A stretch of 64,000 bases of DNA from a virus (IMGVR_UViG_3300031857_000053:43267-107266); one strand, 5' to 3'; counted from the first letter of the stretch, positions 48,278 to 51,711 are shown. A program made the numbers and translations. Notes: generated by a model from the sequence alone, not told the origin.

Positions 48278-48619
48278 ATGAAAATAAAGGTACCAGCGTT
48301 TGAGACCAAGTCTCTTGTAAAGTTAGAAATCCCAGGGGTTTTCTATCAAAGGATTCAGAGTTTAATGTTTTACTTTATTAGTCTACACTCGAAGGAAGAG
48401 TTTGAAGTTTCTTTCAATAAGCTTACTGCGGGTAATAAACCTGAGAATGCTTTAGACTTACACCTTCAAACTCTTCTTACTCTTGTTTCTGAGACCGAGC
48501 AAGCTATGCAAAAGCAAAACTTAACTACTATGGAAGTGGTGGATATTGATGAGAGTTCTTTATCTGAACAATCTTTAGCTGATATCAAATCTAAGTTTGA
48601 GGTTGTTGATGGAAATTAA
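48278..48619 (+). CDS. Hypothetical protein (counter-oriented)
   Basis: MKIKVPAFE... start chosen downstream of the promoter. Confidence 0.65.
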   Translation: MKIKVPAFETKSLVKLEIPGVFYQRIQSLMFYFISLHSKEEFEVSFNKLTAGNKPENALDLHLQTLLTLVSETEQAMQKQNLTTMEVVDIDESSLSEQSLADIKSKFEVVDGN

Positions 48620-49001
48620 TTCCAACAGTTTCTCCAATTTGATTAATAGCTTCTATTACTAAACCTAGTTCATCTTTTGAACAGTCTCCTAAAGATTTAC
48701 ATATCATAAACATTTCATCTCCTATCTGTTTTTTTATACAAAGACCAGCTTGTCTTTTTACTTCAAGTTTCATATCTTCGAAGGTATATCCTAATTCTTT
48801 TGCTAGTTCTCGAATACACACATGTATTTTAGCTAATTGAGGCACGGTGCCATTATCTTCATTAGCTTCCATGAATACTTCTACTTGTTGACTCTCGCTT
48901 ATTCCATCTAGAAAAAGCTTATACTTTTCTGGAGAAATAGGAGTTAATGTTCCAAGTAAATTCTTTATAAATTTACCATGATAGATATTATGTTTACTCA
49001 T
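48591..49001 (-). CDS. NinB/YbcN-like protein
   Basis: QLAKIH..IRELAKELGY...KSLGDCSKDEL pattern. Confidence 0.55.
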   Translation of the reverse strand: MSKHNIYHGKFIKNLLGTLTPISPEKYKLFLDGISESQQVEVFMEANEDNGTVPQLAKIHVCIRELAKELGYTFEDMKLEVKRQAGLCIKKQIGDEMFMICKSLGDCSKDELGLVIEAINQIGETVGINFHQQPQT

Positions 49002-49419: not shown

Positions 49420-49701
49420 TTAATCTTTTTTCCAGATTATTGATATGTCTCTATCTGGGACCATAAAGAAGTAGTCTTTCTCTATTTGGATTACTTCAGC
49501 GCGTTCTAATGCTGTACCAATATATACGCGATCACCTACTACAACATTGGTAACTTCATCACCAACATGTGTAACCTCAAGCGCAGTATAACTTTTCATT
49601 AGATCTGCATCAATAGAAGCTTTATCTGCTTCACTTAATTCAATCTTTGATTCTTTTCTTGCTGGTTTCTTTACCAGTACTCTTTTACCTAGTAGTTTCA
49701 T
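49420..49701 (-). CDS. groES: Co-chaperonin GroES-like
   Basis: MKLLGKRVLVK...VTHVGDEV..VVVGDRVY...DI. Start ATG 49701. Confidence 0.8.
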   Translation of the reverse strand: MKLLGKRVLVKKPARKESKIELSEADKASIDADLMKSYTALEVTHVGDEVTNVVVGDRVYIGTALERAEVIQIEKDYFFMVPDRDISIIWKKD

Positions 49702-49727
49702 ATTTATTTGTTTTGGGTTTATGTAAT

Positions 49728-50591
49728 TTAAAATATATATCTTATCGTGTTCCAAGGGATAATTTGATCATGTAACTCAGTCCATTCTTTTATATACTGA
49801 GCTTTGAGATTGTATTTATACCTTATGTTTTCACCACCATACTGTGATACTTTATCCTCTTGGATCTCTGGGTTCCATAGTAGATGTTCTCCTGGTAGAT
49901 TGTTAGCTACGTTATACTGATGTTTAGCTTCATTGTGTGTAAGGAAAATTACCTCAGCTTTGACCTTGTCTTTGTGGTCTTCTTTAACAAAGTAATTGAT
50001 AATGTTAAACAAGTTTCTGTAGCTGTCTAACCAACCATCTGTTACTATTACCGGAGAGAAGTTTATATGCACATCATACCCAGCATAAATGAATTTGTCT
50101 ATAGCTTTTATTCTGTCTAAGATAAGACTTGTATTAGGCTCTAGATAATCTGCATATACTTGTGGCATGAGACTAAATCTTATCCTGATTTTACCTTGTG
50201 GGTGTACATAGTACAACAAGTTCTCATTTACATACTTGGTAGCAAAGGATCCCATCGCTCTAGGATGATTCTTAAAGAAGTCAAATATCTTTTGCCACTC
50301 GTGATACTTAGCATGTAAAGCAAAATCTTCATTGCAGGATATATCATAAGTGATATATTCTGGGTGAGTTTGATTAGGTTTTTCTACATCGGCAAAGGTA
50401 CAATGATTATTTATCTCTGTAAGAATATCCATAGTGTTTGTGGCTATATCTAATCCCTCAGATTTATGTCTTTTCATATAACAGTAAGTACAGTTATATA
50501 AACAACCATGACCAAAGGAAGGGCTGATATAATCAGTTGACCTTCCCGATGATCTTATGGTCATAGACTTTCTAGTTACGTGTGTTACCAT
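49728..50591 (-). CDS. Spore photoproduct lyase-like radical SAM enzyme
   Basis: GCLYNCTYCY, FATKY, RIRFSLMP, NFSPVI, KVSQYGG..IRY. Confidence 0.8.
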   Translation of the reverse strand: MVTHVTRKSMTIRSSGRSTDYISPSFGHGCLYNCTYCYMKRHKSEGLDIATNTMDILTEINNHCTFADVEKPNQTHPEYITYDISCNEDFALHAKYHEWQKIFDFFKNHPRAMGSFATKYVNENLLYYVHPQGKIRIRFSLMPQVYADYLEPNTSLILDRIKAIDKFIYAGYDVHINFSPVIVTDGWLDSYRNLFNIINYFVKEDHKDKVKAEVIFLTHNEAKHQYNVANNLPGEHLLWNPEIQEDKVSQYGGENIRYKYNLKAQYIKEWTELHDQIIPWNTIRYIF

Positions 50592-50784
50592 CCTGTTTTA
50601 TTTTATCAGCATAATCTTCTAAAGCTTGTCTATAACCAGCTTCAAAAGCTTCTTTTATTTCTTCATATCTTTCATATTTAGAAATATGATCACCCTTTTC
50701 CATGTGATACTTATTGTCTGCATATTTATGAGCATCAGCCCATGGATTGTTTGCTAACTCTTTGATTGTTAATTCTTTACTCAT
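50572..50784 (-). CDS. Hypothetical protein
   Basis: 70 aa, EAFEAGY motif. Confidence 0.6.
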   Translation of the reverse strand: MSKELTIKELANNPWADAHKYADNKYHMEKGDHISKYERYEEIKEAFEAGYRQALEDYADKIKQDGNTRN

Positions 50785-50818
50785 AGGTTTAATTTATTGA
50801 AGTGTACTTAGCGACAAG

Positions 50819-51188
50819 TTACCAGCAATGCTACAACCATTGTCCAGTAAGTAAATCTGCATCTCCGTTCATAAAATCTTCGTCAGTTGGCTCTCTGCTT
50901 TCTCCGAATGTTTCTTTTTCGGCATCCCAACCGCATTTACTACAACTTTGATAATCAAAATCAATATCATCGTAGTGTCTGCCACATTTAGGGCAATCCT
51001 TATGCGGTTGGTTTTCGTAGTATTCATCATCGTAGAAATCATCTTCCAAATCCGCACTGCTGGTAACAGCACCTTGTTGCAATGCGGGATTTTTCGGTTC
51101 ATTTAAGTTTTCTGCTTCCATTGAAATTTTATTTTAAGTTGATAATTATAGGTTTCAAAATCCCGCACTGACAACAAGCTGCGGAACG
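50819..51188 (+). mobile_element. Integron-type gene cassette (370 bp) with inverted ORF
   Basis: Begins G|TTACCAGCA at 50818. Its exact reverse complement TGCTGGTAAC (51058-51067) opens the attC, which ends in G|TTAGCA at 51188. Confidence 0.7.
50831..51121 (-). CDS. Acidic zinc-ribbon protein (CPKC...CSKC), cassette cargo
   Basis: 96 aa with more GC-ending codons than neighbours. Start codon lies within the attC loop. Confidence 0.7.
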   Translation of the reverse strand: MEAENLNEPKNPALQQGAVTSSADLEDDFYDDEYYENQPHKDCPKCGRHYDDIDFDYQSCSKCGWDAEKETFGESREPTDEDFMNGDADLLTGQWL

Positions 51189-51194
51189 TTAGCA
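51061..51194 (+). repeat. attC-like recombination site (134 bp)
   Basis: R'' TGGTAAC ... R' GTTAGCA. Arms CTTGTTG-CAA-TGCGGGATTTT / AAAATCCCGCA-CTG-A-CAACAAG with one extrahelical base. Confidence 0.75.
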
Positions 51195-51200
51195 CCAATT

Positions 51201-51401
51201 TTAAGAAGTGCTATTACTAACAATTTCATCATTCAAAAACTTTTCTACGCTTTCTCTTCTTGGTGTTTTCAAAATTATAATTTGACTCCCATCGGTGTCG
51301 TGCAAATGAAATAACACTTGTGCTTCAAATTTCATACCCACATCACCATTTTTAGGTGAAATAGTTACTACTTTTAATTCTGTATCTTTAAATTTATTCA
51401 T
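51201..51401 (-). CDS. Hypothetical protein, probable remnant of a second cassette
   Basis: 66 aa directly after R'. Confidence 0.55.
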   Translation of the reverse strand: MNKFKDTELKVVTISPKNGDVGMKFEAQVLFHLHDTDGSQIIILKTPRRESVEKFLNDEIVSNSTS

Positions 51402-51711
51402 AGTTTAAGTTAATATGTTTAAGTTTCCAGATGTATTTAGGATCTTCAGCATAGCCAATTTTAGTTAAGAAAGTATAGTAATTTCCTCTTTTATATCGCG
51501 AATATATTTGTTTTGCATATTCTTCACAAGCTTGTTCTACAGATTCAAATTCTTGTATTTTTCCTTTGTAACTTAATCCAAAAGGATTACACTTGTTTAT
51601 AAAAGCATCAGATTTTAACCATCCAGTTTCTAATACAGCTTGCTTAGTAACAATTTCTGCGTGTTCACACGGCATATACTGGCACATAAGTGTAAAAATA
51701 AATTTTAGCAT
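51394..51711 (-). CDS. Glucosaminidase (GH73)-like muralytic enzyme
   Basis: QAVLETGW, NPFG, GYAEDPKY. Confidence 0.8.
   Translation of the reverse strand: MLKFIFTLMCQYMPCEHAEIVTKQAVLETGWLKSDAFINKCNPFGLSYKGKIQEFESVEQACEEYAKQIYSRYKRGNYYTFLTKIGYAEDPKYIWKLKHINLNYE

Follow-up and report, generated by a model that had tools for sequence, protein, structure and literature searches.

Does a 370-bp unit in the genome of a large freshwater phage represent a mobile gene cassette of the integron type, and, if so, which kind of enzyme would move it? The unit lies in the window, a stretch of 64,000 nucleotides that corresponds to bases 43267-107266 of a 107,266-bp virus record in IMG/VR (completeness estimate 91%), with DNA polymerase, primase, helicase, and exonuclease among the phage replication genes of the genome. 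The minus strand holds every gene between 30 and 64 kb of the window, and the unit sits there in a series of small genes located upstream of a gene resembling that of spore photoproduct lyase. Comparison of more than 80 related viral contigs showed that the gene content of this small-gene stretch varies from contig to contig. The GC content of the unit amounts to 39.5%, versus 29-33% in the flanks and 30.7% in the whole window, and a blastn search of GenBank phages with the region gave no match. The initial annotation, made from the DNA by itself, described an attC-type integron cassette with an inverted gene starting inside the attC site, an interpretation that proved largely right. It had seen no integrase in the window, and none is found there or in the complete record: tyrosine recombinase, serine recombinase, and Y1 transposase are all absent from the 107,266 bp (≈ 91% complete), and no PF00589 or PF01797 protein is encoded in the phage genome. 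Two complete phages carrying the zinc-ribbon gene family of the cassette have no tyrosine recombinase either.

Table 1. Positions of the cassette, its parts, and its neighbours, counted from the first base of the window; the vertical bar in a sequence marks the crossover point.
Feature	Positions	Strand	Remarks
Mobile unit, 370-bp cassette	50818..51187	-	Bounded by ..YAAC|G junctions
Recombination-site-like hairpin matched by model R2	51054..51201	-	144.3 bits
Junction G and 4-nt one-sided bulge (GTTCC, gene sense)	51183..51187	-	Right after the crossover point ..TAAC|G
Hairpin 5′ arm, 26 nt	51157..51182	-	GCAG-CTTGTTG-T-CAGTGCGGGATTTT; extrahelical T at 51171 (A on + strand)
AT-rich loop, 63 nt	51094..51156	-	A-rich leader and ATG at 51121-51119
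Hairpin 3′ arm	51068..51093	-	Also about codons 10-18 of the ORF (..NPALQQGA.)
Inner half of the split helix H1 (R box)	51054..51067	-	GTTACCAGCAGTGC; codons V18-A22; partner 50818-50831
Cassette tail, outer half of H1	50818..50831	-	GCATTGCTGGTAAC; from the last base of stop codon TAG to the crossover AAC|
Orphan tail-type half-site ending the upstream gene	51188..51200	-	AATTGGTGCTAAC; docking junction; tail consensus ATTG-NNNN-YAAC
Sequence just beyond the cassette	50801..50817	-	TTGTCGCTAAGTACACT; possible leftover of the next site's 5′ arm
Cargo gene, acidic zinc-ribbon protein	50831..51121	-	96 aa, pI 4.05, CPKC...CSKC; ORF and motifs
Upstream flanking gene	51201..51401	-	66 aa, no family match
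Downstream flanking gene	50572..50784	-	70 aa, no family match

Read in gene sense, the cassette consists of a G, a bulge, a hairpin, the ORF, its stop codon, and a tail ending in ..TAAC, and the region matched by the covariance model R2 takes in 14 nt of the preceding gene's tail as well as the R-box codons (Table 1). The imperfect palindrome with an extrahelical base that had been annotated initially is present: the hairpin folds with z-scores of −4.7 (DNA, plus strand) and −4.0 (RNA, minus strand), and none of 200 shuffled sequences was as stable. The complementarity of the cassette ends, previously put at 10 bp, is real and longer, with 13 of 14 positions paired between the two halves of H1, or 14 of 14 on the minus strand allowing G.T, and it covaries. 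In the present context, TAAC at 51064-51067 (plus strand) opposes GTTA at 51188-51191, and with the cassette ends joined it opposes the cassette's own GTTA at 50818-50821. In that joined form the 14-nt tail and the 5′ hairpin make up one continuous imperfect hairpin of ≈ 45 bp, composed, from its base upward, of a 14-bp helix with AAC:GTT at the inner end, a one-sided bulge of 4-5 nt, and a stem of ≈ 25 bp. The joined ends gave a single hairpin in 7/7 loci carrying a full-length homologue of the zinc-ribbon gene.

Two covariance models were employed to place this hairpin in a family. R1, built from the window and two near-copies, found the same hairpin type ahead of unrelated ORFs, and R2 was rebuilt from 23 sites with the window and its near-copies excluded. 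Applied to the window site, R2 gave a full-length match on the minus strand (144.3 bits, E 6e-29) and 16.3 bits on the plus strand; under default Infernal filters R2 missed this very site, and the decisive searches were run with the filters off. RNAalifold returned no hairpin from MAFFT alignments because MAFFT had misaligned the arms, and alignments fitted to the covariance model were used instead. For H1 (alignment A4, eight loci), 97.3% of the cells are paired, with both-sided changes in 6/14 pairs and one-sided changes in none, a pattern matched by 0/500 shuffles; one G.T pair is invariant. The long stem (alignment A7, 23 sites) carries compensatory changes in 24/24 pairs, and its pairing of 89.6% exceeds that of shuffles (61%) and of slid partners (33-44%) by a margin that is large, even allowing for the advantage that an alignment fitted to the model gives to the structure. 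Both helices, H1 and the long stem, are conserved through compensatory change, and a chance palindrome is ruled out by the fold z-scores, the covariation of both helices, and the R2 score. Along the family, AAC and GTT are kept in 22-23 of the 23 sites, the junction G is invariant and forms a G.T pair with the T preceding GTT in 22/23 members, and a bulge of 3-6 nt is common to all 23. The window follows the same family rule, by which the tail ATTG-NNNN-YAAC pairs with GTTR-NNNN-CAGT 3′ of the hairpin, including the conserved G.T. A search of Rfam, which holds no attC family, gave a sub-threshold chance match to a snoRNA as its sole result.

The 370-bp unit occurs nearly unchanged in other contexts. 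A near-copy of identical length (L094:456-825) shares 354 of 370 nt with it (95.7%), while the 200 nt on each side are at shuffled-level similarity, the breaks falling at ..TAAC|G and ..TAAC|. A freshwater-metagenome contig from another study (X11) aligns with the window solely over 50818-51201, and a further contig (X4) stops at exactly 51188. The initial annotation had expected breakpoints in relatives to fall on these sites, and the boundaries of L094 and X11 do coincide with YAAC|G junctions. Contigs of two public freshwater runs cross both junctions as in the window, and no contig in four freshwater runs skips 50818-51187; neither an excised circle nor an empty site is seen in contigs or reads of this phage lineage. 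An empty site was sought with the 16-mer of the joined flanks among viral contigs, seven of which contained it; six of these matches are chance matches within unrelated genes, and the seventh, at a cassette junction in L158, extends to 22 nt but is ruled out as a true empty site by its non-homologous flanking genes. An excised circle would show the junction ..GCTGGTAAC|GTTCCGCAG.., and precise loss of the cassette would leave ..GGTGCTAAC|TTGTCGC...

Sites of this type also occur in arrays, in which the hairpin separates unrelated ORFs, head to tail. L094 has four sites within 1.5 kb, and a contig of a Chitinophagaceae MAG (L142) has six hairpins in a row, the zinc-ribbon homologue being the third cassette. 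The window itself holds one site, so that the phage displays no array of its own. Six cassettes with unrelated cargo, including a lipoprotein-like ORF and another zinc-ribbon (L110, L094 (second cassette), L107, L002, L097, L114), show pairing between the tail and the 3′ flank of their own hairpin (12-13/13), and the same tail closure is seen in the C5-methyltransferase cassette of L158 and in gp35 of Polaribacter phage P12002L.

The immediate neighbours of the cassette deserve a closer look. The upstream ORF lacks a hairpin of its own, yet its tail, TAA-AATTGGTGCTAAC|G, is of the cassette type. No partner for this tail was found in the window; the 12 nt of AATTGGTGCTAAC also end the C5-methyltransferase cassette in L158. 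On the other side, the 17 bases beyond the cassette had been called the remnant of a previous arm. In favour of this, the first 8-10 bases (TTGTCGCT/AA) recur elsewhere: TTGTCGCT begins the hairpin matched by R2 in L117:251-391, and AAC|TTGTCGCTAA recurs at the cassette junction of L158. The recurrence does not extend beyond these bases, however, and the stretch gave neither a fold nor an R2 match. In the 107-kb phage genome R2 matches one site only, with the tail-type half-site and the ≈ 10-nt remnant as its neighbours, and it is plausible that the cassette and these neighbours represent an eroded array, as suggested initially.

The cargo of the cassette yielded sub-threshold zinc-ribbon matches only in Pfam and PHROGs, and unnamed small viral proteins only in the protein atlas. 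As stated in the initial annotation, its ORF runs against the usual cassette orientation and co-linear with the surrounding phage genes, its ATG lies in the loop, and one arm of the hairpin encodes part of its N-terminus; the arm accounts for residues 10-17 and the R box for residues 18-22. The zinc-ribbon gene has many metagenomic relatives, of which one subfamily retains an N-terminal extension of ≈ 22 residues, and homologues of 74-76 aa are without it. Two further viral contigs (L176, L177) carry the same hairpin and the leader MEAENLNEPKxPALQQGAV with 86% nucleotide identity to the window, followed by unrelated proteins (bodies of 110 and 113 aa, respectively), each with its own covarying tail; similarity to the window ends at ≈ 51052-51055, just beyond the 14-nt box. 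As judged from these sequences, the hairpin is a portable front end whose leader is fused in frame to unrelated bodies. Since shorter homologues do without the extension and the same leader stands on other bodies, the leader looks like a by-product of the site, and the zinc-ribbon body may be independent of it. The loop further contains TTGAAA-N16-TAAAAT (51158 to 51131), a 10/12 match to a sigma-70-type promoter at a position kept in relatives; a promoter scan of the region counted no more sites than in shuffles, and the motif is best described as promoter-like, on prediction.

Candidate enzymes exist in bacteria. On a Flavobacterium MAG contig, at least 4 hairpins are followed by a tyrosine recombinase of 361 aa, and hairpin matches were obtained in 17 of the 31 relatives of this MAG. 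The largest numbers are at least 78 hairpins in G023 and at least 63 in G017, where most among the matches listed fall within 890-1107 kb of one chromosome-sized contig. In G006, G017, G020, and G014, the closest homologue of the recombinase and the hairpins are ≈ 7 kb apart at most, and the recombinase invariably lies to the same side of the array; this adjacency, in four genomes that include fragmentary MAGs, is what links recombinase and hairpins. The four array-adjacent recombinases score ≈ 190-204 bits on TIGR02249, against a cut-off of 265, and match this profile in two pieces, skipping approximately positions 180-255, which we take to be where the IntI-specific insert lies. They score at the cut-off of the XerA/integron-integrase model NF040815, and a PDB search with one of them gave archaeal XerA as the best matches (PDB 4a8e, 5hxy). 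Two bacterial arrays were examined for gene orientation; in both, the ORFs are encoded on the strand complementary to that matched by the model, as in classical integrons, and the cargo of the G006 array includes defence-type proteins (ThsB-TIR, SLATT). The likely hosts are relatives of Flavobacterium. A host or trans-acting integrase, as envisaged initially, fits these data, with a phage devoid of such an enzyme and arrays in Flavobacterium relatives that adjoin a tyrosine recombinase. Of the searches suggested at the outset, that of hosts turned up arrays; the recombinases beside them are XerA-like and fall below the integron-integrase cut-off.

Taken together, positions 50818-51187 probably constitute one mobile cassette with a single gene, belonging to an integron-like system that Bacteroidota and their phages use. 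A mechanism can be sketched in which the gene-sense strand, folded as single-stranded DNA, would be the substrate of a tyrosine recombinase that would cleave at AAC|G, in analogy to the action of IntI on the attC bottom strand. The excised cassette would be circular and would be inserted into a further site of this type, with the enzyme presumably supplied in trans by the host. XerA/IntI-like recombinases found at the ends of large hairpin arrays on the chromosomes of Flavobacterium relatives are the candidates for this enzyme. In the phage copies, contrary to the bacterial arrays, the gene is written on the folding strand, such that the loop of the site contributes the ATG, preceded by an AT-rich leader that is promoter-like, and a leader peptide of 17 codons, joined in frame to the body that comes after the GTT.

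Three other explanations have to be weighed against a cassette of an integron-like system. In the phage copies, the strand that folds better has the sense of the transcript, the ATG lies within the loop of a fold with an RNA z-score of −4.0, and the phage encodes no recombinase, all of which would suit an element acting at the RNA level, i.e. a transcript helix framing start codon and ORF (an RNase III site or a means of translational control), whose modules are shuffled by homologous or illegitimate recombination in the manner of PeSL cassettes. The G.U-type pairs conserved at two positions would be equally compatible with single-stranded DNA and with a helix in RNA. Yet the ORFs of the bacterial arrays examined lie on the opposite strand; the preferred strand tracks the array and not the gene or its transcription, which makes a role at the DNA level likelier. 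In addition, breakpoints that are base-exact at YAAC|G across unrelated contexts are unexpected from homology-driven shuffling, the arrays adjoin a tyrosine recombinase, and use of the promoter-like motif in the loop would leave the 5′ arm out of the transcript. A purely RNA-level element is accordingly regarded as very unlikely. Hardly any probability at all is assigned to a non-autonomous single-strand transposon of the IS200/IS605 type, inserted 3′ of a short target (TAAC) by a Y1 HUH transposase acting in trans. Insertion beside the conserved tetranucleotide YAAC, dependence on a hairpin, and strand bias recall such elements, but these have a separate hairpin at each end, whereas here one hairpin is split by the junction; the phage lacks a Y1 transposase (PF01797), and it is a tyrosine recombinase that adjoins the head-to-tail arrays.

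A bona fide classical integron cassette, with a true attC site, a host IntI, and the present unit as a single-site CALIN relic, is unlikely. In its favour, the R helix has AAC/GTT on its inner side, and the unit matches integron cassettes exactly in crossover and topology. The array-adjacent recombinases reach ≈ 190-204 bits on TIGR02249, but they remain below its cut-off, match it in split form, and have XerA as their best matches, and both the geometry of the spacers and the polarity of the gene differ from those of a classical cassette. IntegronFinder 2.0 reported almost no integrons in Bacteroidetes (PMC9024848), yet the arrays described here are common in the Flavobacterium relatives searched. 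A short member of the family, in phage P12002L, was called by HattCI and has been published within a CALIN, but it was missed by the Infernal attC model and was the one site among those tested for which no IntI1 junction was verified (PMC9892861).

The reading as a cassette of an integron-like system is hence retained, and with moderate confidence it can be extended to a broader proposal. Bacteroidota and their virulent phages would share a large integron-like exchange system, nearly missing from the literature searched and driven by Xer-type recombinases without the IntI insert. In the phages the cassettes would be placed backwards, with the hairpin doubling as an expression module that brings along a start codon preceded by a promoter-like leader, together with a leader peptide of 17 codons that is portable between unrelated bodies, and phages lacking a recombinase of their own would exchange accessory genes by means of the host's enzyme in the course of infection. 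Integrons are commonly regarded as nearly absent from Bacteroidota and are defined by IntI with its special insert; if the proposal holds true, a plainer Xer-like enzyme with arrays of dozens of cassettes would broaden this definition, and a parallel Xer-like system would bear on the origin of IntI from Xer. Its reach into virulent phages would open a concrete and testable route by which genes pass between hosts and lytic phages without any integrase from the phage. The reversed polarity implies a DNA recombination site that is also translated, where the constraints of base pairing and of the reading frame coexist, and points to a way in which new N-termini become attached to proteins. Standard integron finders probably overlook such arrays, leaving the defence genes, methyltransferases, and small phage proteins within them uncounted.

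Two phage systems with hairpins or stem-loops invite comparison. In integration of the CTX-phage type, XerCD acts on a folded single-stranded hairpin that mimics dif. The putative substrate described here is analogous in that a Xer-family recombinase would act on a single-stranded phage DNA hairpin with an imperfectly paired centre; the CTX case differs in that a whole phage genome enters the chromosomal dif site, with no cassettes, arrays, or split site around single genes. The PeSL cassettes of T4-type phages have small genes flanked by a promoter and a stem-loop, and their shuffling is thought to be driven by homology between the repeated copies. The likeness lies in small accessory genes in plastic phage regions that are exchanged as modules with a stem-loop and a promoter-like element ahead; unlike PeSL, the window phage has a single copy, exact YAAC|G junctions, and a helix split across the unit.

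The resemblance to integrons goes much further. It comprises the folding of an imperfect palindrome, with the R helix ending in AAC/GTT on its inner side, and a crossover at the edge of this triplet, by which the first bases of the linear cassette are complementary to the cassette's own R''. It extends to single-gene cassettes arranged head to tail with similar sites across unrelated cargo, to large arrays with homogeneous repeats and a tyrosine recombinase at one end, as in sedentary chromosomal integrons, and to defence-type genes among the cargo. The differences concern the site, the enzyme, and the orientation of the gene. In a classical attC site, R and L boxes are separated by ≈ 5 nt in one arm and by 5-6 nt in the opposite arm, and the spacer is unpaired and accompanied by single extrahelical bases; this family shows a one-sided bulge of 4-5 nt and a 14-bp R helix; in the window, the spacer counts 5 nt (AGCAC) on one arm and 9 nt (CTGCGGAAC) on the other, which produces the bulge, and there is one extrahelical base, at 51171. 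Each of the cores TGGTAAC, GTTAGCA, and GTTACCA departs from RYYYAAC/GTTRRRY at 2-3 of its 4 degenerate positions. The candidate recombinase of the family is XerA-like and lacks the profile stretch that we assign to the IntI-specific insert, whereas integrons have IntI. In a classical cassette the ORF precedes attC on the top strand; in the phage copies the ORF is reversed and starts inside the loop, such that the site stands at the 5′ end of the gene and provides start codon and leader peptide. An integron platform has an array-adjacent intI that passes the integron-integrase model, but the phage has no such gene and the array-adjacent recombinases of the four Flavobacterium relatives score below that model's cut-off; a CALIN has at least two nearby attC sites and no integrase, and the 107-kb phage genome has one site. 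The initial term 'attC-type' is borne out by anatomy and crossover, but in view of the one-sided bulge, the poor cores, and the recombinases below cut-off it should read 'attC-like': the site is integron-like, and not a proven classical attC.

Within what a text search can exclude, neither arrays in Flavobacterium nor their Xer-like partner nor the reversal of polarity are described in the literature searched, where the system is barely touched on. The closest precedent is the work of Qi et al. (2023), who described integrase-less clusters of attC sites (CALINs) in virulent phages, including Polaribacter phage P12002L, and who treat the sites as ordinary attC (PMC9892861). The window has one site and no cluster, and reversed polarity, a start codon in the loop, a leader, and Xer-like bacterial arrays do not feature in the available portion of that article (PMC9892861). 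One short member of the present family has nevertheless already been published as attC: P12002L_attC1 (NC_028924 30005-30058, minus strand), which was called by HattCI only (PMC9892861), coincides with an R2 match and belongs to the family as a member with a short loop. R1 with default filters had given no match in P12002L, to which the narrowness of a model built from three near-identical copies may have contributed. The anatomy is that of the family, with TGCTAAC|G, the bulge GCTAC, a hairpin, and T-GTTAGGCAC pairing with the tail GTGCCTAAC after gp35, and P12002L is likewise virulent, infects Bacteroidota, lacks an integrase, and carries a methyltransferase as cargo.

Downstream of the cassette stands a spore-photoproduct-lyase-like gene that is kept, at 69-81% identity, across more than 160 viral contigs, whereas the gene content just upstream of it, unlike the lyase gene itself, varies between contigs. 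The very short glucosaminidase-domain gene runs with its final codons into the beginning of the 66-aa gene, which bears the orphan cassette tail. For the first of the four giant ORFs in the window no match was found in PHROG; their succession may bring to mind the layout of crAss-like phages.

Features around the cassette, giant ORFs of the window, and the recombinase of a bacterial array
Feature	Coordinates	Strand	Match or remark
Four giant ORFs in succession	1587-29923	+	1180, 1834, 4124, 2293 aa
NinB/Orf-like recombination mediator	48591-49001	-	phrog_72, weak match; directly downstream of lyase gene
GroES-like co-chaperonin	49420-49755	-	phrog_3188; directly downstream of lyase gene
Spore-photoproduct-lyase-like radical-SAM gene	49728-50591	-	PF20903, E 2e-27
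Glucosaminidase-domain protein	51394-51711	-	PF01832, E 7e-13; 105 aa
Xer/IntI-like recombinase	G017:C1 885170-886234		accompanies hairpin array

Among the zinc-ribbon homologues elsewhere, that of an 80-kb complete viral genome carries a single in-frame TGA codon (L089:2594-2596), which falls on a conserved aromatic position in the motif ..DID[FY]DYQ..; to judge from this one codon, TGA may code for W in that phage, or the gene may be broken. A short homologue on another contig is flanked on both sides by a 13-nt direct repeat, GCAGATAATTCAA (L116:1-60 and the stretch past the stop codon), in place of the hairpin and tail, and this junction may be of a different kind.

For Polaribacter phage P12002L, 'divergent attC directions' are reported by Qi et al. 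2023 (PMC9892861). The published P12002L_attC2 (L151:29170-29243, +) overlaps the gp35 cassette tail, GTGCCTAAC, read on the opposite strand, so that the two directions may represent one split site called twice.

On the bacterial side, a chromosome-sized contig from a relative of the Flavobacterium MAG (G017:C1) contains at least 63 hairpins recognised by R2, the covariance model of the family, a lower bound from 101 scored candidates; among the matches listed, most lie at 890000-1107000, all on the same strand. In another bacterial array (L152:2702-4099, G006:C4), cassettes code for SLATT (PF18181/PF18184) and ThsB-TIR (PF08937) proteins, which are defence-type cargo; chromosomal integrons of Vibrio likewise carry cargo of this type.
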